56,095 bases of DNA, taken from positions 1 through 56,095 of the IMG/VR virus record IMGVR_UViG_3300038549_000050; one strand, given 5' to 3'. The first letter of the stretch is position 1. Each line of letters starts with the position of its first letter. The position numbers were made by a program, and so were the translations under genes. The notes under the pieces were generated by a model. It was given only the letters and a program-made list of their open reading frames with translations. It was not told the origin of the DNA and did no database searches. The DNA comes from a virus (Duplodnaviria; Caudoviricetes). Positions 2,353 to 56,095 of this stretch are shown here, one piece after another.

Positions 2353-2574
2353 ATGGATGATCAAGACTTTAAGAAGTGCGTCGAGGCGTTCCTCACCCGA
2401 CACTCAATGGCTCCGTCGAGATTCGGAGTTCTAGCGATCGGTGACAGCGCATTCGTCCTCAGGCTGCGCAACGAAAAACGCAGCCCGCGGTTAAAGACGG
2501 TATCGAGGATCTTGAAGTTCATGGCTGAGTATGAGTGTAAGCGTTGCGTTCAGCGTTGTGGATTTCCTCCCTAA
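2353..2574 (+). CDS. Cro-like HTH regulator
   Basis: FLTRHSMAPSRFGVLAIGDSAFVLRLR..RSPRLKT motif typical of alphaproteobacterial Cro-like proteins; first rightward gene. Confidence 0.75.
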   Translation: MDDQDFKKCVEAFLTRHSMAPSRFGVLAIGDSAFVLRLRNEKRSPRLKTVSRILKFMAEYECKRCVQRCGFPP

Positions 2575-2624
2575 AACTGGCGGGCAGGTCTCGCGTCCCG
2601 CCTTTTTCGCCACGAGAGAAAACA

Positions 2625-3137
2625 ATGGCTGAGGTCAAGCTCTGGACCGACGACGAAGACAAGCTGTTGGCTGAGATGTACGAGAAGGGTCTCAGCGCGT
2701 CTCAGATCGCGAAGAAAATTCCAGGCCGCAGCAGCCGGAATGCCATCATTGGACGCATCCATAGACTCAAGCTGCCGCCGAGAGCGCCGCGGCCGGTGAC
2801 CGGAAAGCGAGATGGCCTCATTGCTCGCCCGTCACGGTCTTTCCGCCAGCCTCAGCTCAGCAAAGAAGCGACGCGCATTCTTCGCGAACTCGCCGCGCAG
2901 ATGAAGGAAACGGCAACTGTGGTTGAGAAGCCAGATGTCGCTGGACCGGTGGGCGGTGTTGCTCTTCTCGACTTGACACCGTCATCTTGCCGCTGGCCGA
3001 TCAACTCGCCGCCGCGCTTCGGCGAATTTCGCTTCTGCGGCGCCCATCGAGCTGAAGGTAGGCCTTACTGTCAACGCCACGCAGATATCGCCTATACGCC
3101 CTTACATGGACGTAAACGCCGGGAAATGGCGGCATGA
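2625..3137 (+). CDS. gcrA: GcrA cell-cycle regulator homolog
   Basis: WTDDE...GLSASQIA...SRNAIIGRIHRL N-terminus; LLDL...CRWP...FCG...PYC..H C-terminus. Confidence 0.9.
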   Translation: MAEVKLWTDDEDKLLAEMYEKGLSASQIAKKIPGRSSRNAIIGRIHRLKLPPRAPRPVTGKRDGLIARPSRSFRQPQLSKEATRILRELAAQMKETATVVEKPDVAGPVGGVALLDLTPSSCRWPINSPPRFGEFRFCGAHRAEGRPYCQRHADIAYTPLHGRKRREMAA

Positions 3138-8252: not shown

Positions 8253-8480
8253 TCAGGAGCGTTCGGTGGATTTCGTGATAACCATCTTGCGGGTAACTCC
8301 TGACCCGACAATTTTTCGCTTGATCGCACCCATCTTCTCCAGGGCGTCAATCGTGCGCATTTCTATACCAAGACGGGGGCGCCAACCATTACCGTAAATC
8401 TTGGCGTAAATATGCAGGGGGCCTCGCTCAAGCTCTTCCATGACGCGAGCCTGCGCGAATGACATTTTTTTCTGCGGCAT
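8253..8480 (-). CDS. Left-array cassette 8: small basic hypothetical protein
   Basis: GGAGG RBS; ends within junction motif (KSTERS*). Confidence 0.65.
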   Translation of the reverse strand: MPQKKMSFAQARVMEELERGPLHIYAKIYGNGWRPRLGIEMRTIDALEKMGAIKRKIVGSGVTRKMVITKSTERS

Positions 8481-8510
8481 AGCGCCCTCCGGGCGTTAGG
8501 TGGATAAGAT

Positions 8511-8711
8511 TCAGTCAATTTCGTTCGGCCGAACCCTGCCGCGCCCATTGCACATAGGACAGCAGACAGTCCTGATCTTCTTCGTATTCAGGCGCTCAAG
8601 ATGATACTGGACGACAGATGGAGATGATATGTCGCAAGCTGCCTGAATGGCCCGTACTGTGGCCTCTGGGTGTCGCTCTACGTAGGCGGCGATCCTTTCG
8701 CGAGTGGTCAT
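8511..8711 (-). CDS. Left-array cassette 7: LexA-type winged HTH plus CxxCxGxG motif
   Basis: ATVRAIQAACDISSPSVVQYHLERL resembles the LexA DNA-binding domain; CPMCNGRG; GGAG RBS before ATG 8711. Confidence 0.7.
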   Translation of the reverse strand: MTTRERIAAYVERHPEATVRAIQAACDISSPSVVQYHLERLNTKKIRTVCCPMCNGRGRVRPNEID

Positions 8712-8737
8712 GTTCGCTCCGGGACGTTGGTTGGATT

Positions 8738-9352
8738 TTACGACAGCGGAATTTCTTCGGGCGATGCGAAGCCGAACATCGGCAGGAAAAAGAATGGTTG
8801 CCCACACTCGCGCATGACTGAAGCGCCCTGGATTTCTGAATAGGCCAAGGCGGCGTCCCAAGCGGCGTCCAAGGCGGCGTTCCAGGCGGCGGCGGCGGCG
8901 GAGGAGGCGGCGGCGTTCCGGGCGACGTCCCGGGCGGCGTTTCGGGCGGCGATCACTTTCTGCCAATCCTCGTGCGTCATGCGATCAATGTGTTTCCAGA
9001 ACGCGAGGATGATATGCGCCTGATCTCCGAGGATTTTCTCGGGATTGGTCAGCACGATTGACGGCGCACCGTCGACGCTGTCGTTCACGCGCCGCAATAT
9101 GACCGCATGCGCAATGCTGATGCCCAGGAGCTTTGCCGTTTCCTTGTCGGCTTCGCGCTGTTCGGTTCCGTTCAGCTTGCGCGGCGACCAGCCACCAAGC
9201 AAATGGAGCACCTGCCCCTGTGCGCACATGCAGCCGATATTGGTCGGCGGCTCCTCCCCGTCGCCCTCATACTCGCTCCAGTCGATGAGCCGGCCTTTGT
9301 AAGGCTTTCCTTCATTGCTGTCCCAGAGCGAGATAAGTTCTTTAAGTTCCAT
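8738..9352 (-). CDS. Left-array cassette 6: hypothetical protein with an Ala/Trp (AARNAA/AAWDAA) repeat
   Basis: 204-aa ORF; 12-bp GCC-rich repeats near 8845-8950. Confidence 0.75.
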   Translation of the reverse strand: MELKELISLWDSNEGKPYKGRLIDWSEYEGDGEEPPTNIGCMCAQGQVLHLLGGWSPRKLNGTEQREADKETAKLLGISIAHAVILRRVNDSVDGAPSIVLTNPEKILGDQAHIILAFWKHIDRMTHEDWQKVIAARNAARDVARNAAASSAAAAAWNAALDAAWDAALAYSEIQGASVMRECGQPFFFLPMFGFASPEEIPLS

Positions 9353-9393
9353 TAGGATATTCCTTCGGGTCTGTGGGTGGGCGTTAGGTGGAT

Positions 9394-9753
9394 TCAGACT
9401 TGGTGCGTGCCTTCGACGCCGCGCGCCATGCGCTCACGGGTGCGCGAAAGCAGCTCCGCTTGAGCCGTCTGCAGATGGAACAGCGCCGACGCATTCGCCT
9501 CGCAGGCGTAGGGGCCGGCCTGGAAGCCTTCGAGGCGATCCATCAGAATTGCCAGCAACGCCTCGTGAGTGATGCCATTCACGCCGGCCTCATTGATCGG
9601 CCCGTTCTGGAACGAGAGGCGCACGCCGCTGCCGTCCGGAAGGGCGATCTCATATTCGTGGGAAGCGCCGCCGGGGCCGGGGCCGTCCAGAGCGCTCACG
9701 CGCAGTACGTCGTTGGCGGGGTTGACTTTGTGGACGGTAAGCTCTCTGCGCAT
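9394..9753 (-). CDS. tad1: Left-array cassette 5: Tad1-like anti-defence nucleotide sponge
   Basis: GPGGASHEYEI...FQNGP...GVNG...LLAILMDRLEGFQAGPY...NA.AL.H...RTRERMARGVEGT parallels the Tad1 family along its whole length. Confidence 0.85.
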   Translation of the reverse strand: MRRELTVHKVNPANDVLRVSALDGPGPGGASHEYEIALPDGSGVRLSFQNGPINEAGVNGITHEALLAILMDRLEGFQAGPYACEANASALFHLQTAQAELLSRTRERMARGVEGTHQV

Positions 9754-9800
9754 GATTTTCTCCGTTGGTGGGCGGTTGATGGATTCAGATTGGAGGCCGC

Positions 9801-10406
9801 TTAGGCGGCCTCCTCCTCGTCGTCTTCTCTCGGGAAAATTCGACTTTCCCAATCGTCCGGGAGCTCGTTGAGCGGCAGCGTTCCGACGAGGGCGACCGGA
9901 TAGTATTGTGCAGCGCGGCGCTCTTTCTCAAAGGGCAGCGATGCATAACGCCCCTTCTCGTGCGGCTCCTTCTGAAAGCCGCGATAGAATTCCAGAACAC
10001 CGTCATCGAGATTGATGATGTAGGCATATTCGCAGAACAGGCTGTCGCCCATGAAGGCTTCGCCGCCCTCCTCCATGAACTCCGCTTCGATGTAGTCTTC
10101 GATGTCGCCCTGCATCTTGCGAGAGAGAACATAAACCTCGGCCACATCGCGAGTGCTGACGCTGGTGTCGGCATACTTCTTGAGCTTTTCGATAAGCTCC
10201 GGAGTAGCGCGCTGGTCTTGTGGCCACATTTGAATGGCGCGCGCCTTGGTCTTGAGCCAGTCCATGCCGCGTTCTGGATCGCCCAAAATGTTGCGAACCG
10301 CCGCTACCACGTCAGCGCCGAGGCCGTCCGGATAGCTGTCGAAATGGTTGTAAGTGGCCTTGGTCTTGCCGTCGATAAAGACGCCGAGCGCTCCGCGCGT
10401 TCCCAT
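9801..10406 (-). CDS. Left-array cassette 4: conserved phage hypothetical protein
   Basis: MGTRG...YNHFDSYPDGLG...EYAYIINLD motifs common in phage early proteins. Confidence 0.75.
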   Translation of the reverse strand: MGTRGALGVFIDGKTKATYNHFDSYPDGLGADVVAAVRNILGDPERGMDWLKTKARAIQMWPQDQRATPELIEKLKKYADTSVSTRDVAEVYVLSRKMQGDIEDYIEAEFMEEGGEAFMGDSLFCEYAYIINLDDGVLEFYRGFQKEPHEKGRYASLPFEKERRAAQYYPVALVGTLPLNELPDDWESRIFPREDDEEEAA

Positions 10407-10448
10407 GGTGTTTTCTCCTCGGTTGATAGGTGGGGCGTTAGGTGGATT

Positions 10449-10691
10449 TCAGTCTTCGTCGTCCATGTCAATGCCGCAGTGGCGGCAGATGTAGCCAGAG
10501 CCGTCTTCATAAACGCGCTCGTGGGCGTTGCAGGTCAGTACGAACTTTTCCAGTCCAAGTCGCTCAACTTCGGCGTCGCATGTGCGCATATCCTGCCCGC
10601 GCCGAAATGGATCGTTCTGCTCGCGACGCCGCTGCAAGAGGCAAGCACCATCGCAGGTAATGCAATCAAAATTGGTCACAGGACATTGCAT
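10449..10691 (-). CDS. Left-array cassette 3: Cys-rich hypothetical protein
   Basis: CP...CITC...C and C.HE...CRHCG; GGAG RBS. Confidence 0.65.
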   Translation of the reverse strand: MQCPVTNFDCITCDGACLLQRRREQNDPFRRGQDMRTCDAEVERLGLEKFVLTCNAHERVYEDGSGYICRHCGIDMDDED

Positions 10692-10706
10692 AAGGCGCTC
10701 CGGGCG

Positions 10707-11021
10707 TTAGATGGATTTGGGTTGCTTCTGAAGAGACGCCGCCAGTTTCTCGGCTTCCTCCTCGCTAATTTCGTCGATGCCGAACGCGCCTTGTTCGACA
10801 GCCGTAAGCACGGCTTTATCGATGACGCGGTGAAGGGGCGTCGTGCCTTCTTCGTTTTCGTCATTCAGCGCGCGGCAAAGGTCCTTGGCGAACCCGCCTG
10901 AGTCCGTGACCTTCAATGGCGGCAAGGCGTTGCACGCCCATCCGCCGCTCACGATGACCGGCAATGCCGAGATATCCAACCGGATGATGATTTGGTCGCC
11001 CTCAATTTTTGCTTCGCTCAT
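10707..11021 (-). CDS. Left-array cassette 2: hypothetical protein
   Basis: Stop codon lies inside the junction motif (PKSI*); GGAG RBS. Confidence 0.7.
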   Translation of the reverse strand: MSEAKIEGDQIIIRLDISALPVIVSGGWACNALPPLKVTDSGGFAKDLCRALNDENEEGTTPLHRVIDKAVLTAVEQGAFGIDEISEEEAEKLAASLQKQPKSI

Positions 11022-11056
11022 GGGTGCTCCGGGCTCCGGGCGGTTTCAGGATTGGA

Positions 11057-11269
11057 TCAACGAACTTCAATAGGGTAATCAGTCGGAACGAGTATAGAAT
11101 CGCGCTTGGCGGTCTCAATTGAGACCATGCCCCGATACAGCTTCTCGCTCACATCCCAGACTTCGCGATACCAGCCCGTTTCCGGGTCTTTGATGCGGGC
11201 CTCGTCATATCCGTCTTCCGGATCTTCTCCGAGACGGTATTGATCAGCGGTGATTTTGCGCCATGGCAT
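11057..11269 (-). CDS. Left-array cassette 1: hypothetical protein
   Basis: GAGGAG RBS; first gene left of the divergence. Confidence 0.65.
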   Translation of the reverse strand: MPWRKITADQYRLGEDPEDGYDEARIKDPETGWYREVWDVSEKLYRGMVSIETAKRDSILVPTDYPIEVR

Positions 11270-11341
11270 ATTGCGATCTCCTCTTGACGCAATGCTCTTC
11301 GCATGTCAGAGTACTCAAGTCAATCACAAAGCGCAGACTAT

Positions 11342-11791
11342 ATGCCCGAAAATACCAGAACGTGGGGCTACATCCTTAGAACGCCCCGCACGCCGACACT
11401 GAAAAAGCAGTTGGAAATCTTGGCGCACTTGCGACTGGACACGCACGAGACCGGCCCGGTTTGGCGCGACGTGCTCGACAAGATCCCACGCGGCCCCAAG
11501 ACCGAAGAGACCGTGTTGGCAATGCGGGGCGACTTGCTGGAGATTGCCGAGCCTGGCGATTGCGTCGCGGTCGCAAGCCCTGCTTGCCTTGGCGTCTCGG
11601 CGGAGGATGCGCGCGCGTTCATCCTCGCGCTTCAGCGTAAGGGTGTGCGGCTGATGGTGTGGGACGAGTGTTGGAGCATTCAACCTGACGGCGACCCGAG
11701 CGAGCTGATCGCAGAGGTGAAGCGGCGCCATAATCGCGAGTACCAGCGCCGATCACGCGCCAAGGCAAGAAAACGTAAATCTCAATCCTAA
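11342..11791 (+). CDS. Degenerate serine-recombinase (resolvase) catalytic domain without HTH
   Basis: WGYILRT..Q...VWRD...LL...PGDCVAVAS...LGVSAED...L..KGVRL followed by an E-helix-like AEVKRRHNREYQRRSRAKAR; canonical YxRVS and DRLGR are altered. Confidence 0.7.
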   Translation: MPENTRTWGYILRTPRTPTLKKQLEILAHLRLDTHETGPVWRDVLDKIPRGPKTEETVLAMRGDLLEIAEPGDCVAVASPACLGVSAEDARAFILALQRKGVRLMVWDECWSIQPDGDPSELIAEVKRRHNREYQRRSRAKARKRKSQS

Positions 11792-11806
11792 TGGAGCAAC
11801 TATGCA

Positions 11807-12079
11807 ATGATTGAGGGAGTGTTGGTTCCAATGAAGGTCTGGCGGCCAGACGAAAGCGTTATCACCGTTGTGTGGATCGCTGGCGCTGAAGATCACTACG
11901 GCAATCTTGTTGCGGAAAACAGGCTTTCAAAAGAAGAATACTGGCCGCGTCTATACCGAGACGCGCGAGCAGACGAATCGCGCGTTCGCGGGCTTTATCT
12001 CACGCTGCGCGACGAAGTCGAAAAATGCGCCTACCGTCGCGCATGGGAAACGCTTTACCTCGACTACATGCAATCCTAA
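11807..12079 (+). CDS. Right-array cassette: hypothetical protein
   Basis: Ends QS* in the motif; start could be 11831. Confidence 0.6.
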   Translation: MIEGVLVPMKVWRPDESVITVVWIAGAEDHYGNLVAENRLSKEEYWPRLYRDARADESRVRGLYLTLRDEVEKCAYRRAWETLYLDYMQS

Positions 12080-12089
12080 TGGAGCCAAA

Positions 12090-12395
12090 ATGAGGTACTT
12101 AAGCGAAGAGCAAAAAGACGCATCTTTGCTGGCTTTGCGGTTGCTGAGTAGCGCTCGTGTGCGAGAGAGGAACGCAGATTACAACCGCCGCTTGACTGAT
12201 GCTCGCCGAGTGGCAGACGGCCTTTCGCCTGCCGAGATCATAGAACAATTGATCGCGCACAATCCAGCCTACATCCGGACCTTACTTGAAACCGAAGATG
12301 CCCGCTTTGGGACGGGCTCTTTGCGGGAGAGATACGCTCGCACCTTCGCAAATCAGCAGCTTTCCAAGGGAGCAACCAATGCAGACATGGAATAA
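12090..12395 (+). CDS. Right-array cassette: hypothetical protein
   Basis: ATG follows the junction RBS; reads through a degenerate junction at 12361. Confidence 0.65.
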   Translation: MRYLSEEQKDASLLALRLLSSARVRERNADYNRRLTDARRVADGLSPAEIIEQLIAHNPAYIRTLLETEDARFGTGSLRERYARTFANQQLSKGATNADME

Positions 12396-12600
12396 AGGCG
12401 AACCCCTCGCGAGCGTCGAAGTTGCTTGGCTACGGATCGAAGAGCCTGACGGTGATGGCGGTTGTTCCCTAAAAGTCGTCCTCGCCGTTCATGATGGCGA
12501 ATGGTGGTCTGAAGCCGGAGACTACAAAGGCGAAAGCTACACAGATCGCATTGATGGCAACATCACCGGATGGCTGCCGTTTGAAATCCCGTCCACCTAA
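12379..12600 (+). CDS. Right-array cassette: hypothetical protein (DUF551-like ITGWLP end)
   Basis: GGGAG RBS; ends PST* in the motif. Confidence 0.6.
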   Translation: MQTWNKGEPLASVEVAWLRIEEPDGDGGCSLKVVLAVHDGEWWSEAGDYKGESYTDRIDGNITGWLPFEIPST

Positions 12601-12612
12601 GGAGGCTGCGTG

Positions 12613-12762
12613 ATGCCAAGCAACCGGACATTGGGCTGGCTTTGGCTTGTGACCATGGCCGCTATGATTTCCACATTCGGCCTGACGGGGCAGAGAATGT
12701 TTTTAGAAATTGCGCTGGCTGGCGGGATAGGCTTTTTCGTCGGCCGCCTGCCTCAATCCTAA
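12613..12762 (+). CDS. Right-array cassette: 49-aa two-TM membrane protein
   Basis: Manual translation MPSNRTLGWLWLVTMAAMISTFGLTGQRMFLEIALAGGIGFFVGRLPQS*; exactly fills the gap between two junctions. Confidence 0.65.
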   Translation: MPSNRTLGWLWLVTMAAMISTFGLTGQRMFLEIALAGGIGFFVGRLPQS

Positions 12763-12770
12763 TGGAGCGA

Positions 12771-12941
12771 ATGATGCCGATATGCGTCGAGGTTGACGGA
12801 CAATTTGAAACTCGGGAAGAAGCATCGCAAGCGCTGCGCGAGGCAGCCCGCATGGTTGATTCGGGCATGTGGATCGCTTCGCAGCCGAGCCGGGCAAACC
12901 CGATGATCTTTATCACCGAAGTGGACGAAGACGAATCCTAA
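12771..12941 (+). CDS. Right-array cassette: small acidic protein
   Basis: Between junctions; ends ES*. Confidence 0.6.
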   Translation: MMPICVEVDGQFETREEASQALREAARMVDSGMWIASQPSRANPMIFITEVDEDES

Positions 12942-12952
12942 AGGAGCGGCCT

Positions 12953-13285
12953 ATGACCGCAATAACTGAGGAGTGGCTTGCTTCGGTCGGGTTCAAATAC
13001 CGTGACCCATTAGAACGCCAGCCGTTCCGGCACTGGAAGCTCACTTTCAACGAGCCGGACGACTATGGGCTTTATCTTGAAACCACGATGCCGGGGTGGC
13101 TGAACGGCGCGGGCGAACACGTCAACGCAGATGGCGGCTGGTTTCTGTGGGTGGGGCGCGAGAGCCATTATTTTCATCTGCGCCATGTCCACGAACAGTC
13201 TGAGATTGTCGCCCTTGTAGAGGCGCTGACAGGGTTGCCGTGGGAGCCAACGAAGATGGGCAATGTGCTCGTGAAGAAATCCTAA
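12953..13285 (+). CDS. Right-array cassette: hypothetical protein
   Basis: MTAITEEWLASVGF...; ends KS*. Confidence 0.7.
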   Translation: MTAITEEWLASVGFKYRDPLERQPFRHWKLTFNEPDDYGLYLETTMPGWLNGAGEHVNADGGWFLWVGRESHYFHLRHVHEQSEIVALVEALTGLPWEPTKMGNVLVKKS

Positions 13286-13296
13286 AGGAGGGGAAG

Positions 13297-13671
13297 ATGA
13301 GGAGAATTGAAAACCCAATGGATGACTTTCGGAATCGAAAGGTCACCTATGAGTTGGATGACGGCAGGCGAGTAGACGTAGACCCGCGCCTAATTCAGGA
13401 AATTGGCCTCCGAAAGGTCATGGAGAGACTTGGCGTCGAGATGCCAGCCGAGCGAATTCCTGTCTTCCATCATGGTGAGCGCGTCGGCACGGTGCCAGCC
13501 GAGTTCGATCCGGCGTTCATCAAGTCGAAGAGCTTCTTTTACGATCCGCGCCCTGGTGATTTCACCCGAATAGCCGAGGGCTGGCAGGTCAGTCACACGA
13601 TGGGACCGGGCGACGTTGCGTCGGTTCCTGGCTTCCAGGCTGAAGTGCGAACGCATCGTGAGCACTGGTAG
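13297..13671 (+). CDS. Right-array cassette: hypothetical protein
   Basis: ATG after the junction RBS. Confidence 0.65.
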   Translation: MRRIENPMDDFRNRKVTYELDDGRRVDVDPRLIQEIGLRKVMERLGVEMPAERIPVFHHGERVGTVPAEFDPAFIKSKSFFYDPRPGDFTRIAEGWQVSHTMGPGDVASVPGFQAEVRTHREHW

Positions 13672-13698
13672 AAACACGATCCAGAAAGGGAGGGAGCG

Positions 13699-13917
13699 AT
13701 GAAACGGAGACAGCGCCTGATCACGGTATGCGATGCCTGCCTGCGGGCATCGTGCTGGCACATGACTTTCCCGTGCCAGGATCACCAAACTGCCGGCACC
13801 ACGAAGAAAACAGCGCGAGAGCTGCGCAAGCTGGATCTGGAGCACCTGGACCATTACAGCCGCAAGGAAGTCGAGCGCGTCTGCGGCGGAACTGAATACG
13901 CAACACCGTCCATCTAG
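13699..13917 (+). CDS. Right-array cassette: Cys/His-rich small protein
   Basis: CDAC..SCW...C...LEH; ends PSI* in the motif. Confidence 0.65.
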   Translation: MKRRQRLITVCDACLRASCWHMTFPCQDHQTAGTTKKTARELRKLDLEHLDHYSRKEVERVCGGTEYATPSI

Positions 13918-13928
13918 GGAGCATTTGA

Positions 13929-14117
13929 ATGCAATCAGCACCTCTTAGTGGTCTCCGCGGCGAAAGCCCGCGCGACTCTTGGCAAAGGCAATACATCCGC
14001 AACGCCCTTGCAGCCCTCGGCCAGGTCAAGACGGAAGACAAGACGCTGGCAGAACACCTTCTGGCCGCAGAGCAGGCGCTGCGCAAGGCCGGCTCGTATC
14101 TCGACAGCAAATCCTAA
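13929..14117 (+). CDS. Right-array cassette: small helical protein
   Basis: Ends KS* in the motif. Confidence 0.6.
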   Translation: MQSAPLSGLRGESPRDSWQRQYIRNALAALGQVKTEDKTLAEHLLAAEQALRKAGSYLDSKS

Positions 14118-14128
14118 AGGAGCGGCCT

Positions 14129-14350
14129 ATGACGAAGCGCAAAATTGATCAAGGCAATGAGTTTCTTCTCTCTGGTTCGCTGAGAATGGAGGACGGCAAG
14201 ATGTATGCGCCGAAGGACGATGATCCGGTGCATTGCCCTGACCACAATGTGACTGTGCGGTGGGGTGACCTTGACGGCATTCAACAACTCGCTGTGGCCG
14301 ATGGAATCGACATCGCAGGTGATGATTGCATTCTGAAACTAAAATCCTGA
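14129..14350 (+). CDS. Right-array cassette: hypothetical protein
   Basis: ATG inside the 24-bp repeat; ends KS*. Confidence 0.65.
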   Translation: MTKRKIDQGNEFLLSGSLRMEDGKMYAPKDDDPVHCPDHNVTVRWGDLDGIQQLAVADGIDIAGDDCILKLKS

Positions 14351-14368
14351 AAGCGAGGAAATATCGGA

Positions 14369-14569
14369 ATGACCGCCGCCTTTTCCCTCTGTAACGACAA
14401 TCGTTGTCTTCGCCGTCTTCTCTGCGCCAGATACATGCTAAAACGAACGGACGACACCGGATTCGCTCGATTTCCAGGCGGCGAAGATTGCAATGGATAT
14501 ATTTCCCTTGCCGGATATATGCAGGGGGAAGCTATCGAAAGAGTGAAGGAACTGACCAAATGTTCATAA
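14369..14569 (+). CDS. Small Cys-rich phage protein
   Basis: C....C.....CARY...C pattern. Confidence 0.55.
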   Translation: MTAAFSLCNDNRCLRRLLCARYMLKRTDDTGFARFPGGEDCNGYISLAGYMQGEAIERVKELTKCS

Positions 14570-14928
14570 CAGCCGATCAACTCCTAGCCCACGCCATCGG
14601 GGATTATATCCTGCAATCTCATTGGATGGCCACTGAGAAGACCAAGAACAGCGTTGCGGCGGCGATTCACGCCGTGACCTACACAATCCCCTTCCTCTTG
14701 CTGACGCAAGACTGGGAGCCCCTGGCGGTCATTTGCGGCACGCATTTTCTTGTCGATCGGTTCAGGCTGGCGCGCTTCGTCGTCTGGTTCAAGAACGGTC
14801 CATGGAAGCCTCTAACGTCGACCGGATATCAAGGCGACGTGCCGTCATGGCTCTCGGTATGGCTCCTGATCGCGGCTGATAATATCTGCCACATTGCAAT
14901 AAATGGCGCTGCGCTGAAGTTTCTCTGA
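14560..14928 (+). CDS. DUF3307-like membrane protein
   Basis: HAIGDYILQSHWMA..K...H...Y...HFLVD...DN..H. Confidence 0.8.
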   Translation: MFITADQLLAHAIGDYILQSHWMATEKTKNSVAAAIHAVTYTIPFLLLTQDWEPLAVICGTHFLVDRFRLARFVVWFKNGPWKPLTSTGYQGDVPSWLSVWLLIAADNICHIAINGAALKFL

Positions 14929-15152
14929 TTGCAAAATTGCAATCATTTACCTCTTGACATTTCAGAAATGCCATTAAGACGGCGAAGAAAAAGCTTGACC
15001 CCCCGATAGGGGGTAGCTTATGCTTGGCATTGGAGAGTTCTGCGTTTTACCGGAACGACCACAGTCTCTTGGCGGGGACGGTCGTATCCTCAATCTGGCG
15101 GCGAAATCAACGTTTCGCTGAAGCCCTTTGCACGTCCGGAGCAACGCCGAAC

Positions 15153-16340
15153 ATGAGCTACCTTATCTCATCGCAAGCGGGTACGCAAGAAGAAAAATTA
15201 ATTCCTTCCTCAAATTCGCAAGGAGCTGAGGTCATTCCCTTCACTGGCTCCCGAGATGTTGTGTCAAGAGGCGAGATTGCTGATGCAGTCAAGCTCTGGA
15301 GACTCGAACGCGACCTGTCTGATGCGCTGACGCGGCAAGAAATCGGGGCGATGAGGATGCTTGACCGCATCGATGCCCAACGCAAGGCGCTCATCATAGG
15401 CTTTGCCGAATATCTTCGCAAGCATGAACGCTCTGATGTCGCCATGGGCGTGTATCTCGTATCGGTGCTCATGAGTGATAACGATCAGGGCATGTCTACG
15501 GTTTCACAGCCGACACTGGCGAAACTGTTTAAGCGGTCCGTGTCATCGATTGCCGATGCTCAGCGGCGGCTTCGCGAGGATAAGCTCATCACCATGTCGC
15601 GAGGCAGGAAGGCCGGAACGGTCCCGGTAATACCGCGCTTTGTCGCCAAGCAGTACAACCATCTGACGTGGGTTCTAGCGGCGCTTTGTGATGACGCGGC
15701 CCCCGTTAATCATCTACTCCCACCGGATGATTGTCAATCATCCGGCCAGACCGGATGTATTTCGAAATCCCTAGGCGGGACCGGATGTATTCCGAATGGA
15801 AATCATCCGGTCGAGGCTCCGGAAATCATCCGGCCGGACCCTATGCAATTTCAGTCTTCTAATTCAACTATATTGGAGAAAGCGGTTTCAGCCGTCGCGG
15901 TCGGCCTAGCATCGACGCTTGCCGTCATGCCGGCGGCTGCTAAACCAGAAGACCCCCCTGCCATCGTTCTGAAGGCAAAGCCATCTCTGGCGGAGATGTC
16001 AGACCGAATGATGAGGGCCAGCGGAAAAGCTCTCGCAAGCCCGGCGACGAATCCGTCGCTTCTGGTCATGTCGGAACTTCAATGCTGGCTTTCGAACGGT
16101 TGCGATTTCGAACTCGATATCATACCGACGATCGAGGCGATCTCGCGCCGCGCCAATGGCGGATCGATCGGGACATGGCGGTACTTTACGAAGGCGATAG
16201 CCAATGCGAAGGCAACCAGGCTGGCGCCGATGCCGGCTGGCGAAGCACAAACAAAAACACGGCCAAGCTGGCGTCCAAAAACCAAGGACGAAATGACCCT
16301 CGAAGAACTCCAAATCCATTACGACCGAGGCGGGGTCTGA
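15153..16340 (+). CDS. Phage replication initiator (central HTH, DnaD-like C-terminus)
   Basis: VSQPTLAKLFKRSVSSI HTH; WRYFTKAI C-terminal motif; directly upstream of the helicase; contains iterons; start uncertain. Confidence 0.7.
   Translation: MSYLISSQAGTQEEKLIPSSNSQGAEVIPFTGSRDVVSRGEIADAVKLWRLERDLSDALTRQEIGAMRMLDRIDAQRKALIIGFAEYLRKHERSDVAMGVYLVSVLMSDNDQGMSTVSQPTLAKLFKRSVSSIADAQRRLREDKLITMSRGRKAGTVPVIPRFVAKQYNHLTWVLAALCDDAAPVNHLLPPDDCQSSGQTGCISKSLGGTGCIPNGNHPVEAPEIIRPDPMQFQSSNSTILEKAVSAVAVGLASTLAVMPAAAKPEDPPAIVLKAKPSLAEMSDRMMRASGKALASPATNPSLLVMSELQCWLSNGCDFELDIIPTIEAISRRANGGSIGTWRYFTKAIANAKATRLAPMPAGEAQTKTRPSWRPKTKDEMTLEELQIHYDRGGV
15723..15876. repeat. Probable replication origin: six CCGGATG/CATCCGG iterons plus an AT-rich tract
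   Basis: Copies at 15723, 15737, 15750, 15780, 15798 and 15821 in both orientations, followed by AT-rich 15845-15875. Confidence 0.65.
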
Positions 16341-21344: not shown

Positions 21345-21812
21345 ATGACCATCATCTGCTGGAGAGACGGCATACTGGCTGCCGACAGCCTCATGCTCAT
21401 GGGCTCTTTCAAGGCTAAGGCGACATTCAAGAAAATCCGTTACGAAGGCAACGGCCAGACATTTGCCTGCACAGGCACGGCAGCGCTCTTTGAGCCCATG
21501 ATAGCTTGGATCAAAGCTGGAGCCAAGCCGGGTGATGTCCCGAAGCCAGCGGATCGACACTGCGACACGCGCGTATTGCTGTTCGAGAACGGCCGCTGTT
21601 TTTCATATACGCCGAACTTACCCTATCCTGACGAGCAATTTGCGCCAGATGCCTGGGGCTCGGAAGCAGAATTTGCCCTCGGGGCGATGGCGGCCGGCGC
21701 AACTGCTGAAGAGGCTGTGGCCCTTGCCATTGAGAATACCAATACGGTCGGAGGCCCCATTGAAGTCATCGACCTTCACCAGATCGAGCAAATCAAGACG
21801 AGGGCGGCATGA
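21345..21812 (+). CDS. Ntn-hydrolase (HslV/proteasome-beta-like) phage protein
   Basis: M-T-I-I...AADS N-terminus; AWGS...ALGAM..GATAEEAV..A. Confidence 0.7.
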   Translation: MTIICWRDGILAADSLMLMGSFKAKATFKKIRYEGNGQTFACTGTAALFEPMIAWIKAGAKPGDVPKPADRHCDTRVLLFENGRCFSYTPNLPYPDEQFAPDAWGSEAEFALGAMAAGATAEEAVALAIENTNTVGGPIEVIDLHQIEQIKTRAA

Positions 21813-23295: not shown

Positions 23296-24072
23296 ATGGC
23301 CACTCCGCACGATAGTTATTTTTTCCACGGTTTTGCCGGCAATCAGATCGTCGGTGACCCGGCGTTCTACGATCTCTCCGGAAATCAGGCAGATGCGCTC
23401 CCTGGAACCAACCTCTCGAACGCCAACCTCTGGACCAATGCCGGATATGCATCGACGGTCGACCCGGCTGGCGGCGCTACCGACAGTGTTCTGCGGTTCC
23501 CGAACCTGAATTTTGATTACAACGGCGGTGAAAAGCTCATCGTCTGGTGGCTTGGAAAGGTCACGGCGGAAGGCGCTGCCGCCGAGATGATGGGAGACGG
23601 CACCTCCACGTCAGGAGCCGGTGTCGCGCTTCGCGTCAATACCAACGCAACGCATCAGCTTGTCCTGTCTGACGGCACGACAACGACGTTCTCAGGCTCA
23701 TCCACCACGGCTGTCCTCAGCGGCAGCTTGAAGGCGCTGGCCTTCGCCATTGATGGCAGTGCACGCAAATACTGCCTCTGGTCCGAAGAGACGGACGGCC
23801 TCATTCAGCCGTTCACCAATGCCGCCGCTCTTGAATACGCAACGCTCTCCTCCGGCGAGGATCGCGACACCCGCAACCCGAACACCTTCAACATCGGCTG
23901 CGCTAGGCCGGAATCTGCGGCGTCAACGGCCGGAATCGCCGTGCAAACGCGTGGTCTGGTCATCCTGCGGCTGTCTCCGACAAAAACCATGCCGTCAGTT
24001 ACCAAGCTGACGCAAATCTTCCAGGCGCTTCGCCGCAATCCATCTCATCTCATTCGCTTGGGTGCATTCTGA
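23296..24072 (+). CDS. Beta-sandwich (LamG/ConA-like) virion-associated protein
   Basis: YDLSGN motif; Ser/Thr/Ala-rich beta-strand pattern. Confidence 0.55.
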   Translation: MATPHDSYFFHGFAGNQIVGDPAFYDLSGNQADALPGTNLSNANLWTNAGYASTVDPAGGATDSVLRFPNLNFDYNGGEKLIVWWLGKVTAEGAAAEMMGDGTSTSGAGVALRVNTNATHQLVLSDGTTTTFSGSSTTAVLSGSLKALAFAIDGSARKYCLWSEETDGLIQPFTNAAALEYATLSSGEDRDTRNPNTFNIGCARPESAASTAGIAVQTRGLVILRLSPTKTMPSVTKLTQIFQALRRNPSHLIRLGAF

Positions 24073-24809
24073 TGGCGCTCGTTTATGCTAATACCTTCTC
24101 GACCTCGTTCGCTGGCGTCACGGGGCTGCAGAGCCAGGGGATCATCACTACAGGCGCTGCAAGCCCTTCTGGCATCAGTGATGGCATCAGCATCGTCAAT
24201 GGCGTCTATCGGGCCAAGATCACCGACGCCGACACGCAGACGGCGTCCGGCATCCGTTCTGAGCTTGTTTTTGCCGACAATGCGCTTGGCGACAATGAGT
24301 TCATTGATTTCGAGCTTCTGATCAAGGACGCCGAATGGGCTGAGACAGGCTCGACGTCTGACCGCATGGTGGTGTTCCAGGTCCATAATGAGGATTCGAT
24401 CACTGCGGCTGTCAACTTCCTACTCTGGGTTGAAGACAGGACGCTCGTCGCTTGGTATCCGTCGTCGGAGCCTCCAACTGAAGGATCGACCTATATCGCC
24501 CGATCTCTTGCTCCGTTCATCTTCGACACTTGGCACCGCATCACCTTGCGAGTGCGCTGGGTCAACGCCTCGACGGGTTTCTTGGATCTCTACCTCAACC
24601 AACGCCCAATCTTCCGTGTCCAGAGCCGCGGCACGGCCTACAATAGCGATACGCCATATCCGAAACTTGGTCTCTATGCCTCAGGTTCAACTGGCTTTGG
24701 CACGCGCATGGCCTATTACCGCAATTTCGCGCATTACCGCGGGGCCGCGGAAAGTTTCGCGACAGTCATGAGCACGACGCCTCGCCCGACGGCAGCACTT
24801 TTAGCTTAA
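24072..24809 (+). CDS. Polysaccharide lyase-like (beta-jelly-roll) protein
   Basis: RSEL, VFQVH, WHRITLRVRW, G.LDLYLN, YPKLGLY motifs of the Polysacc_lyase/heparin-lyase-type fold. Confidence 0.75.
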   Translation: MALVYANTFSTSFAGVTGLQSQGIITTGAASPSGISDGISIVNGVYRAKITDADTQTASGIRSELVFADNALGDNEFIDFELLIKDAEWAETGSTSDRMVVFQVHNEDSITAAVNFLLWVEDRTLVAWYPSSEPPTEGSTYIARSLAPFIFDTWHRITLRVRWVNASTGFLDLYLNQRPIFRVQSRGTAYNSDTPYPKLGLYASGSTGFGTRMAYYRNFAHYRGAAESFATVMSTTPRPTAALLA

Positions 24810-27979: not shown

Positions 27980-29477
27980 CATTCACCTGCACGAAAGGCA
28001 GTTCATTGCCTTCACGAGCGTCGCCAATGAGATTCTTTATGGCGGCGCTGCAGGCGGTGGGAAAAGCTTTCTAATGCGCTGTGCCGCCGTCATATGGTGC
28101 GCGGCGATCAGCGGTCTCCAGATCTATCTTTTCCGGCGAGAACACAACGATCTGATCAAGAACCACATGGAGGGGCCGAAGGGTTTCCGCAACCTTCTGG
28201 CGCCATGGGAACAAGCCGGCCTCGTCAAGATCGTAGAAGACGAGATCAGATTTTGGAACGGCTCGAAAATCTATCTCTGCCACTGTCAGCACGAAAAACA
28301 CAGGTTCAAATATCACGGAGCTGAAATCCACGTTCTGCTCATGGACGAACTGACGCATTTCAGCGAGGTCATATACCGATATCTTCGCAACCGCGTTCGT
28401 ATGGTCGGTATCGATGTTCCGGCGCAATATGCCGGTATGTTTCCGCGCATTCTGTGTTCATCGAACCCGGGTAACATCGGTCATGGTTGGGTTAAAGCGA
28501 CGTTTGTCGATAATGCCGACGATCTAGCCATCAGGCAGATGAGCAAGTCCGAAGGCGGCATGCGGCGCCAGTTCATTCGTGCCAGACTCGAAGACAATCC
28601 ATCAATGATGGAGGATGATCCGACCTACGAGGATCGCCTCGAAGGCCTCGGCAGCGCTGAACTGGTCAAAGCGATGCGTTGGGGGGATTGGGATGTTATC
28701 GAGGGGGCGTTCTTCGATAATTTCGACGCCAAACGCCATGTGTTGAGGCCAGTAGGCTTGCCTAATCACTGGCTTAAGTTCAGGGCTGGCGACTGGGGCA
28801 GCGCCAAGCCATTTTCGATCGGCTGGTATTCCGTCGCATCAGATGACTGGCTTCATCCGGACGGCTTTGTCATTCCAAGGGGCGGAATGATCAAATACCG
28901 CGAATGGTACGGCGTCAAGACCAACCCTGATGGAACGTTTCAGGCAGACGTTGGCGTAAAGCTGACATCACTGCAAGTCGCGCAGGGTATTCTTGAGCGC
29001 GAAGGTGCTTTGTTCGACGATCGTGGCCTCATGGTGAGCGGGCCGACAGAGGCAATAGAGTACGGCGTTCTTGACCCAGCAGCTTTTCACGTCGTCAGTG
29101 GACCATCGATCGCCGAAGAGATGTCCATGAAAGGCGTTTATTTCATGGAAGCCGACAACAAACGCGTTCCTCTCAGGGGCGCAATCGGGGGCTGGGATCA
29201 AGTGAGGGCAAGGCTGAACGGAGATGGTGACGGCAAACCAATGCTGTTTTTCTTCTCTAATTGCAAACATACGATCAGAACACTGCCAGCGCTACAGCAT
29301 GATCCGAACCGCCCCGAGGACGTCATGACCGACAGCGAAGACCATGCTGGTGATGAAACCAGATATGCATGCATGTCGCGCCCATGGATACCGCCACAGA
29401 AAAACGCTCAAATAGACAGCTTATCAGATTACACCAATTCCCATGAAAGAGAACCCGATGAGTGGAGAGTGATCTAG
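27939..29477 (+). CDS. terL: Terminase large subunit
   Basis: [10 protein letters not shown] Walker A, LMDELTHF Walker B, SNPG, DWG and [10 protein letters not shown] nuclease motifs. Confidence 0.95.
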
Positions 29478-53217: not shown

Positions 53218-53293
53218 TGGTCTGGGTGGCTGGACTTGAACCAGCGACCCCCGCACTCCAAATGCGGTGCGCTACCAACTGCGCTACACCCAG
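53218..53293 (-). tRNA. tRNA-Pro(UGG)
   Basis: CTGGGTG/CACCCAG acceptor stem plus ACCA; anticodon arm CCGCA-TT-TGG-AG-TGCGG; T loop GGTTCAAGTCC. Confidence 0.95.
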
Positions 53294-55894: not shown

Positions 55895-56095
55895 CCTCTA
55901 TCTCTAGGATCTTTATGAGTTCATTTGCAAAGTAATCGTATCTTTGCGCCCGCGCCGCCGCCGCCCACGCCGCCGCCCCCGCCGCCCACGCCGCCGCCCC
56001 CGCCGCCCCCGCCGCCCCCGCCGCCGCCTCCGCCGCCGCCCCCGCCGCCCACGCCGCCTCCGCCGCCGCCCACGCCGCGCATGCCGCCGGCCACG
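55881..56095 (-). CDS. Ala/Trp-repeat protein (5' end off window)
   Basis: ...AAWAAAEAAWAAGAAA...RAQRYDYFANELIKILEIEGANG*. Confidence 0.7.
   Translation of the reverse strand, partial: WPAACAAWAAAEAAWAAGAAAEAAAGAAGAAGAAAWAAGAAAWAAAARAQRYDYFANELIKILEIEGANG

Follow-up and report, generated by a model that had tools for sequence, protein, structure and literature searches.

Conserved motifs at the gene junctions of two divergent accessory-gene arrays in a phage genome: candidate translational punctuation and possible linkers for single-gene exchange

The window analysed here is the whole of IMG/VR virus record IMGVR_UViG_3300038549_000050 (56,095 bp, estimated to be 93% complete), and the subject is a block within it, 8253-14928, where 21 small genes form two divergent arrays and are separated by short recurring sequence motifs. 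Eight of the genes (L8 to L1) are on the minus strand and 13 (R1 to R13) on the plus strand, the two arms parting at 11270-11302. A preliminary description had drawn attention to about 20 mutually unrelated genes of this kind, to the motif at nearly every junction, and to R1, a gene for a resolvase-fold protein, around which an integron-like platform was envisaged. The arrangement of open reading frames (ORFs) plus junctions holds, as does its recurrence in phages with differing genes; the recombinase-driven mechanism is not supported. From comparison of sequences, single genes appear to have been swapped between phages exactly at the junction sequences.

No paralogues were found among the 21 array proteins when the array was searched against itself (blastp, E<=0.01), and with the exceptions of L2, L4, R13 and R1 the proteins lack an annotated family in Pfam and PHROGs, such matches as there are being to families without a function. 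L4 is, as had been claimed, Tad1-like (Thoeris anti-defence 1), a putative assignment that rests on phmmer matches of its residues 6-118 to solved Tad1 structures (E 1.2e-14 to 8kbb, 4.6e-13 to 7uav and 8kbh) and on phrog_2428 (E 1.7e-30). A further match, of the C-terminal 73 residues, is to gp184 of entry 8y6v (E 1.5e-12). L5, L3, R8 and R7 gave no informative match to solved structures. Among the other proteins of the record are a GcrA-like regulator, Rha, DnaB, a primase-polymerase, a terminase, a P22-type portal and a capsid protein. GcrA is to our knowledge restricted to Alphaproteobacteria and the matches of the cargo protein R3 among cultured-phage records are, seven out of seven, in Sinorhizobium phages; its presence and those matches point to an alphaproteobacterial host. 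No close relative of the window was found by blastn of the block against cultured phages, with R1, a 395-amino-acid (aa) protein (15153-16337) or DnaB against IMG/VR, with an alignment of R1 or its homologue P0003 against metagenome contigs, or with P0003 against IMG/VR, and the portal is at most 35% identical to those of cultured phages.

The motifs are of two types, each largely the property of one arm. The left type, ATCCAYCTAACGCCC, is present in four exact copies and, with 2-3 mismatches, at 8257, 8722 and 9770, all on the minus strand (Table 1). With two further, chance-like matches at 11372 (plus) and 25299 (minus) this gives nine in the whole window at up to three mismatches, against 2.44 expected, nine being reached in one of 100 shuffles. 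The right type, AATCCTAAWGGAG, has six exact copies, all on the plus strand, and a 2-mismatch copy on the minus strand over the start codon of L3, where the preliminary description had placed one; these seven matches compare with 1.57 expected and were reached in none of the 100 shuffles. The string ATCCTAA occurs seven times in the 56 kb, each time at a junction site of the block, and an unbiased repeat search recovers the same motif families. Elsewhere in the record only chance-like matches to the left motif were encountered, in keeping with the earlier remark that no such motifs had been noticed in the replication or virion operons.

All seven left-arm junctions and nine of the 12 in the right arm have a motif or clear variant, the exceptions being R3/R4 and R12/R13, where the genes overlap, and R8/R9. 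Junction length ranges from 8 to 47 nt. The upstream gene in the right arm always ends at the stop supplied by the motif, with the result that the protein ends in Gln/Lys/Glu-Ser, GGAG follows directly after the stop, and the next ATG is 8-15 nt past it. In the left arm the sequence (C)TGA-A-ATCCAYC-TAA-CGCCC is mostly 3' of the stop and 0-23 nt ahead of GGAG. Intermediate forms, TCCACCTAAGGAG and TCCATCTAGGGAG, at the two right-arm junctions in which left-type cores had earlier been noticed, link the two types.

Table 1. Genes, junction motifs and divergence region of the block 8253-14928 (positions in the window).
Feature	Positions	Strand	Basis or remark
Left arm, eight genes	8253-11269	minus	start/stop choice, Pfam, PHROGs
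L8	11057-11269	minus	
L7	10707-11021	minus	
L6	10449-10691	minus	zinc-ribbon-like
L5	9801-10406	minus	
L4	9394-9753	minus	Tad1-like
L3	8738-9352	minus	
L2	8511-8711	minus	small winged-helix (winged helix-turn-helix) protein
L1	8253-8480	minus	last gene of left arm
R1	11303-11791	plus	stand-alone resolvase-fold protein, 162 aa (149 aa from ATG at 11342)
R2	11807-12079	plus	
R3	12090-12395	plus	
R4	12379-12600	plus	
R5	12613-12762	plus	
R6	12771-12941	plus	
R7	12953-13285	plus	
R8	13297-13671	plus	
R9	13699-13917	plus	
R10	13929-14117	plus	
R11	14129-14350	plus	
R12	14369-14569	plus	
R13	14560-14928	plus	DUF3307 membrane protein
Divergence region, presumed promoters	11270-11302		CCTCTTGACG at 11280-11289; inverted repeat ATTGCG-N12-CGCAAT at 11270-11293
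Left-type, exact, L2 to L1	8491-8505	minus	similarity runs 29 nt, through L1 start codon
Left-type variant, L3 to L2	8722-8736	minus	ATCCAACCAACGTCC
Left-type, exact, L4 to L3	9379-9393	minus	directly 3' of L4 TGA
Right-type copy overlapping L3 start codon	9347-9359	minus	TATCCTAATGGAA; ATG at 9352
Left-type variant, L5 to L4	9770-9784	minus	ATCCATCAACCGCCC; 19 nt past L5 stop
Left-type, exact, L6 to L5	10433-10447	minus	
Left-type, exact, L7 to L6	10702-10716	minus	motif TAA is L7 stop
Degenerate left-type, L8 to L7	11033-11053	minus	AATCCTGAAACCGCCCGGAGC
Degenerate left-type, within 3' end of L1	8257-8271	minus	ATCCACCGAACGCTC
Right-type, exact, R1 to R2	11784-11796	plus	TAA is R1 stop
Right-type, exact, R2 to R3	12072-12084	plus	
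Intermediate form, R4 to R5	12592-12604	plus	TCCACCTAAGGAG
Right-type, exact, R5 to R6	12755-12767	plus	
Right-type, exact, R6 to R7	12934-12946	plus	24 bases identical with copy at 14110
Right-type, exact, R7 to R8	13278-13290	plus	
Intermediate form, R9 to R10	13909-13921	plus	TCCATCTAGGGAG
Right-type, exact, R10 to R11	14110-14122	plus	
Variant, R11 to R12	14343-14355	plus	AATCCTGAAAGCG

The punctuation recurs beside relatives of R1. A library of 1.84 billion proteins yields 62 representatives of the R1 family at E<=1e-3, the nearest homologues (P0002-P0004) being 60-68% identical and one of them on a 44-kb contig. An alignment of ten family members led to eight IMG/VR loci, with homologues 33-41% identical, and a ninth homologue is gp42 of the cultured Aurantimonas phage AmM-1. 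When the arms beside R1 were scanned with one uniform pattern (TCY, 0-4 nt, stop, 0-9 nt, GGAG, 3-12 nt, start), the ten R1-found loci yielded 35 matches in the sense orientation and one antisense, against 0.25-0.71 per locus in shuffles, and nine of the ten, AmM-1 included, had at least one. The arm downstream of R1 carries a short type, e.g. AAATCCTAACAGGAGC, AAGTCCTAAAAGGAGC, AAGTCCTGAAAGGAGC or AAATCTTAGAAAGGAGC, and the opposite arm the long type, TCCAVCTAAC(C)CCGGAGGC, followed after 4-6 nt by ATG. In AmM-1 (L115, NC_027334; three-digit L numbers designate the fetched loci), an unannotated ORF of about 56 codons in the 199-nt gp40-gp39 gap (~28609-28807, minus) has left-type junction elements on both sides.

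Scanning with the element itself extends its range beyond R1. The long type was met at 27 loci on 26 IMG/VR contigs, most of ~37-48 kb and several with 3-5 copies. An 18-base version, sought in one genome per prokaryotic species, gave 25 loci, of which 15 are in genomes titled mostly as Rhodobacterales, with Maricaulaceae, Hyphomonadaceae and Acetobacteraceae in addition, all of which we take to be Alphaproteobacteria. Several of these loci are arrays, e.g. seven copies in a Salipiger bermudensis prophage; the other ten of the 25 are single copies in unrelated phyla, and chance arithmetic gives ~17 for 18 bases in 596 Gb. The exact window motifs, as a 16-mer and a 15-mer, retrieved 13 and 60 IMG/VR loci, as single chance-like matches. 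Two contigs of metagenome-assembled genomes (L121 and L136) carry both types on opposite strands, divergent as in the window, and no R1 homologue was found in the 8-kb pieces of either. R1 was also absent from ten out of ten other motif-bearing records searched whole, five of them estimated to be at least 95% complete, with positive controls found in five of five. The flanking of R1 homologues by such arrays, on which the preliminary description had made its model depend, is seen in nine of the ten R1-found loci.

In five whole host genomes the 13-mer CTAACCCCGGAGG has seven matches, all at known prophage sites, and a reversed-pattern control has none; confined in this way, the element is therefore phage-specific and no general signal for translation in the host. 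A tblastn search of the fetched loci at E<=1e-4 gave a homologue for R1 alone among the 21 array proteins of the window. The junction punctuation is conserved across phages while gene content differs. Since a window-like portal is present in only one of five R1-bearing records, the module travels between phage types.

To describe the elements as a class, 148 instances from non-redundant loci were pooled, 118 of them with a downstream ORF of at least 35 codons; as they were gathered by a pattern that requires TCC, a stop and GGAG, the statistics characterise the class without proving it, and loci ascertained through the motif lean towards the consensus. That consensus is TCCAVC-TRA-C(S)CCC-GGAGGC for the left type and TCC(AVC)-TRA-(W)GGAGC for the right. 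Among the 118, the downstream start is ATG in 103 and is 5 or 6 nt from GGAG in 74, the stop is TAA in 85, TGA in 26 and TAG in 7, and TCC is separated from the stop by AAC, AGC or ACC in 62 and by no triplet in 25. The codon ahead of TCC is mostly CAG, AAG, CAA, GAA or AAA. Of the three upstream frames, the one that stays open longest (for at least 35 codons) is the frame of the motif stop in 80 of the 118, for which chance would give one third, and the stop therefore truly terminates the upstream gene.

The motifs, of 13-20 nt, are asymmetric and without dyad symmetry, 59 motif contexts fold no better than their shuffles (mean z +0.37) and show no conserved RNA structure, the CTAAC core is predicted to be unpaired and is the least paired part of those contexts, and the block holds no Rfam family. 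Promoter-like sites are at the chance level (4 vs 3.5 in shuffles). Terminator-like sites number 15 vs 8.1 +/- 3.4, as an overall count without assignment to individual junctions. By eye there are genome-specific flavours (TAACGCCC in the window, CTGACCCC in L128, TAGCCC in L079 and L085), which fit homogenisation within a genome and would also fit co-evolution with a factor. Several familiar signals were also considered by eye and set aside: pairing of the motif flanks with the 16S 3' tail, a DnaA box, a CtrA or GcrA/GANTC site, a Chi-like site, a tRNA 3'-end-like att core, boxA and an alphaproteobacterial promoter -10 element do not fit all copies, and a hairpin sequestering the Shine-Dalgarno sequence is present only at 8490-8502.

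The evidence for exchange is from all-against-all blastn of the loci, with same-contig duplicates removed and with random placement (200 trials) as the null. Homology ends inside a motif in 84 of 623 cases, compared to 7.8 at random (maximum 18). A high-identity set, restricted to non-redundant loci, comprises 23 matches of at least 80% identity and at least 120 bp, whose ends, after one at a locus edge was dropped, number 45; 21 of these lie within 8 nt of a motif vs 1.8 expected, so that homology between different phages ends at the motifs far more often than by chance. Seven of the 23 matches have a motif at both ends. Examples of high-identity matches are those between L082 and L136 (347 bp at 93.7% and 236 bp at 94.1%), L092 and L104 (242 bp at 88%), L107 and L127 (484 bp at 83.9%) and L086 and L102 (323 bp at 84.5%). 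One and the same gene end, motif included, leads into three different downstream genes, in L111 (twice), L106 and L119, and L111 has in addition a perfect 406-bp duplication of one cassette (1103-1508 and 1784-2189; sense is the reverse complement). A small zinc-ribbon-like ORF is between the duplicate copies. In the sample from which the window derives, a 151-nt low-depth contig is ~91% identical to the 3' end of R1 as far as 11797, where the first right motif ends, and its remaining 51 nt are not on the window, a single weak observation. A home-made gene tiling that compared motif-bearing with motif-free junctions (4/45 and 14/54) missed small genes, and its numbers were set aside.

The distribution of the motifs, their strand and position rules, their restriction to phages and the ending of homology at them are matters of direct observation, and from them we infer a translational role and a recombination mechanism. 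The explanation to which we give slightly better than an even chance is that the motifs are stop/Shine-Dalgarno junction elements that double as linkers, through whose short homology single genes are exchanged. The block would consist of two divergent polycistronic operons of accessory genes, with the motifs as conserved intercistronic elements, each of which would combine the stop codon of the upstream gene, usually with TCC or TCC-AVC as fixed codons before it, with a short spacer that is G-poor and unstructured and with a strong Shine-Dalgarno sequence, GGAG(G), 5-6 nt ahead of the next ATG. Such a standard context would end each unrelated ORF and re-initiate on the next. Both types recur, arm for arm, in many temperate phages and prophages of Alphaproteobacteria, and each gene boundary therefore has ~20-29 bases that are nearly identical both inside one genome and from phage to phage. 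These could serve as linkers for short-homology recombination when phages co-infect a cell or meet a resident prophage, letting single ORFs be replaced, duplicated, lost or inserted with the operon left intact.

Several points weigh against this explanation. Because the shared motif carries any gene-boundary alignment into itself, homology ends there are partly expected under any gene-level mosaicism. The L111 duplication has only one of its endpoints in a motif. (The other is 27 nt into another frame, and the second copy is thereby lengthened by nine codons at its N terminus.) The contigs of the single source run, the only run in which the block was found, showed no joints from deletions or circles, and this is no evidence against rearrangements. 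Among the window proteins scanned, none was recognised as a recombinase of the RecT, Erf or Rad52 kind, and host RecA or an unrecognised phage protein would therefore have to make do with only 20-29 bp. Judged by eye, TCCAVC, the C run, and the C or G after GGAG are unexplained by pairing with the 16S 3' end, and the conserved bases outside the stop and Shine-Dalgarno sequence might just as well be bound by a trans-acting factor.

This last point is the starting place for the rival that fares best, though we hold it to be unlikely, at well under an even chance: the motifs as RNA or DNA sites of a trans-acting regulator with co-ordinate control over the accessory operons, with exchange at boundaries incidental. 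Bases without an evident role in termination or ribosome pairing are conserved across phages whose R1 proteins are as divergent as those of the R1-found loci (33-41% identity), the two arm-specific types are kept as types, and the elements are strictly oriented with transcription and restricted to phages. The repeats known as SAS in Cluster K mycobacteriophages (Pope et al. 2011, PMC3203893), or stoperators, would be the parallels, and SAS have the same syntax, with a function for which experimental verification was still called for in 2025 in the accessible portion of PMC12699233. However, no candidate factor co-occurs with the motifs, R1, the only conserved gene seen, being absent from so many motif-bearing records; near-identical sequence across many different phages is unexpected for immunity-specific repressor sites; and the element always holds a Shine-Dalgarno sequence at a fixed distance from ATG.

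The other rivals depend on what R1 is. Its gene is the first of the right arm wherever present and ends in the first right-type motif, and the protein has a basic C-terminal tail. An AlphaFold model built from 4 sequences (mean pLDDT 66, pTM 0.61) has as its top Foldseek matches 1gdt, 5cy1, 2rsl, 1zr2 and Sin (gamma-delta and Tn3 resolvase, Sin), at probability 1.00, E 2.4e-4 to 1e-3 and TM 0.45-0.60; at the level of fold, the model thus has the serine-recombinase catalytic domain. Against Pfam PF00239, R1 scores 20.0 bits (19.6 in a six-frame search), below the gathering cut-off of 23.3, and 15 of 48 members of its family match Pfam Resolvase (E<=0.01). The nucleophile we take to be Ser10 (gamma-delta numbering), in the loop after strand 1, and the catalytic arginines presumably are Arg68 and Arg71 of the D-R-x-x-R segment. 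Across the 48 aligned family members there is no conserved serine after strand 1, where the consensus is WGYILxxPGRPxxxxQ; the segment from G22-Y23 to Q36 has L-x-x-P-G-R-P in the family and LRTPRTP in the window R1, the equivalence to Ser10 being one of fold position and recall, not of structural alignment. A weak match (E 0.026) of profile A1 to Tn3 resolvase 5cy1 sets 'pdclgv' opposite 'LDRLGR', with Cys and Val at the positions of Arg68 and Arg71. No C-terminal helix-turn-helix or other DNA-binding domain was found with Pfam, and the model ends in a long helix and the basic tail. On this comparison, made with weak profile matches and a medium-confidence model, R1 appears to lack the catalytic residues of serine recombinases. 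Its gene is a conserved first right-arm gene in one sub-lineage and probably encodes a non-catalytic nucleic-acid-binding or regulatory protein rather than the engine of exchange. The family consensus carries conserved PGRP and CLG motifs of its own.

T4 Seg and Mob enzymes exemplify exchange driven by endonuclease breaks. An improbable alternative has breaks of the homing-endonuclease kind made at or near the junctions and repaired by gene conversion from a co-infecting phage, with the R1-type domain as putative targeting module. In its favour are a C-terminal GIY-YIG domain in six of the 48 R1-family members (alignment A2), HNH plus NUMOD4 in one, and the direct adjoining of R1 to the arrays in nine of ten loci, but the window R1 and most of its family are without a nuclease domain, and arrays exist without R1.

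The mechanism of the preliminary description, in which R1 would recombine site-specifically at the motifs and so capture, excise and reorder cassettes, is already largely refuted and must be counted very improbable. The fold, the Resolvase matches in part of the family and the first place of R1 in the right arm are on its side, and of the earlier claim for this gene the fold is what survives. The loop serine, the arginines and a DNA-binding domain are missing, the Pfam score is sub-cut-off, the motifs are short, asymmetric and unstructured rather than attC-like, R1 is absent from ten out of ten other motif-bearing records, and the window has no tyrosine recombinase (none in a six-frame search with PF00589, for which controls were positive in 14 of 14 genomes, and no match among array proteins). 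That the motifs are nothing special, ordinary strong ribosome-binding sites beside stops that are alike by chance or composition, has a negligible probability and is already refuted by the counts: TAA and GGAG are common at bacterial gene junctions, yet neither the placing of every ATCCTAA nor the number of right motifs is so explained, and the element, found neither in the remainder of the phage nor, apart from prophage sites, in five host genomes, recurs in unrelated phages.

The closest parallel is with SAS. In the accessible portion of PMC3203893 these are asymmetric repeats of ~13 bp with GGAG, a few bases before mostly ATG starts and sometimes including the stop of the upstream gene, in one orientation and in the non-structural region only, ahead of unrelated gene families, conserved in related phages and nearly absent from hosts. 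The window element likewise is an asymmetric repeat with a Shine-Dalgarno core, 5-6 nt before the start in 74 of the 118 pooled instances and mostly followed by ATG, in a single orientation, confined to a non-structural region and matched in host genomes at prophage sites only. Sequence and host phylum differ, the Cluster K consensus GGGATAGGAGCCC having only stop-plus-GGAG in common with it, and on sequence grounds the window element is an analogue of SAS, not a member. The window system has two arm-specific types and two fixed upstream codons, without an ESAS-like inverted repeat having been seen, and the phages that carry it differ in their virion modules. Exchange of whole cassettes at the elements is documented for this system, and no such claim for SAS was seen in the accessible text of PMC3203893.

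For exchange, the nearest counterpart is the PeSL (promoter-early stem-loop) cassettes of T4-type phages (Arbiol et al. 2010, PMC2839356). There, as far as the accessible portion goes, short conserved regulatory motifs lie between small non-essential ORFs in hyperplastic regions, and recombination from one motif to another accounts for the shuffling, loss and replacement of individual genes, no dedicated site-specific recombinase being involved. The high-identity matches described above similarly tend to end at the repeats (21 of 45 ends; on both sides in 7 of 23 matches), subject to the caveat on alignments that run into the shared motif. In contrast, PeSL units are transcriptional, a sigma-70 promoter plus a terminator stem-loop (same source), whereas the window elements would be translational and inside polycistronic operons; promoter-like sites are at the level of shuffles and no stable structure was found. 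Mini-circles have been shown for PeSL, according to the same portion of PMC2839356. The idea of 'boundary sequences' in lambdoid phages, i.e. homologous recombination at short conserved sequences at gene boundaries to make mosaic junctions, is also pertinent, and was set aside because they are absent from most mosaic joints (PMC3029335, accessible portion). Here, unlike in those phages, two operons have such a sequence at almost all of their boundaries, and it recurs in many phages.

Stoperators are 13-bp sites in short intergenic spaces, oriented with transcription, which are genome-wide and immunity-group-specific and have no ribosome-binding site. As asymmetric sites with many copies per genome, the stoperators of Cluster A mycobacteriophages (sites of L5 gp71; mentioned in PMC3203893 and PMC3029335) do resemble the window element. 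The window element differs in being fixed relative to the start codon, limited to two operons, and common to many phages. In an integron, promoter-less unrelated ORFs, each followed by a conserved site, are expressed from one end of the array, and the recombinase is the tyrosine recombinase IntI. Its attC sites are imperfect palindromes of 57-141 nt which act as single-stranded hairpins. Arrays of unrelated ORFs, each with a conserved site, are common to both systems, but here there is no IntI, no active recombinase and not one array but two divergent ones, and inverted repeats that fold in the manner of attC were not found among the 59 contexts. A text search of the literature for the motif strings returned only unrelated primer sequences, and one for junction motifs of Rhodobacterales prophages nothing relevant; most subscription journals lie outside the coverage, and for that reason the element cannot be called undescribed.

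A broader proposition, which we rate as possible though at rather less than an even chance, is that temperate phages of Alphaproteobacteria share a recombinase-independent cassette grammar. In it the two linker types, each also a stop/Shine-Dalgarno junction, would mark off two sets of single-ORF cassettes, with anti-defence genes like Tad1 included, that move between otherwise unrelated phages and prophages by short-homology recombination, possibly via circular intermediates. If true, this would be a 'linker sequence' model of phage modular evolution at the resolution of single genes, and a functional analogue of an integron without integrase. With AmM-1 and the prophage-bearing strains there are culturable systems in which the question of boundary sequences can be put to a direct test. 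As the motifs mark arrays of accessory genes, with one cargo resembling an anti-Thoeris protein, scans for linkers could be used to mine counter-defence and host-takeover genes. The block would also add to the SAS phenomenon an independent second example from another phylum, which suggests that such translational punctuation is a general phage strategy.

Some further features of the window merit mention. The interior of L3 (8845-8952, minus) has a 12-nt periodic repeat, with five overlapping 24-nt copies, encoding an Ala/Trp/Asp-rich C-terminal half, and the Logan contigs of the source run break at 8879-8919, within L3. An ORF at 703-1218 consists almost wholly of in-frame hexanucleotide repeats (GCCGGAGCC, GCCATCGCC, GCCGTAGCC), in up to 21 copies, a 15-nt tandem repeat of CAGGTCGGCGGAGC... 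is at 35-95, and a G+C-rich tract of GCCGCCCCCGCC and relatives (at least 5 copies) occupies 55950-56095, to the end of the record; the repeats at the two ends may be one repetitive gene split by linearisation of the contig. A scan for sigma-70-type promoters gave no site in the divergence region. CCTCTTGAC is common to two presumed promoters, at 11280-11288 and 14950-14958, each with an ATTGC-type inverted repeat beside it, the one listed in Table 1 and ATTGCAAAATTGCAAT at 14928-14943, and these repeats are candidate operators of one regulator acting on the right arm and the replication operon. Four copies of CCGGATGAT, one forward and three reverse, lie within 110 bp (15723-15833) inside the 395-aa ORF upstream of DnaB and may be an iteron or origin cluster. 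Other genes of the record are those for the GcrA-like cell-cycle regulator (2544-3137), an HslV-like peptidase (phrog_1040; 21345-21812), a polysaccharide lyase (24072-24809) and tRNA-Pro (TGG; 53218-53293).

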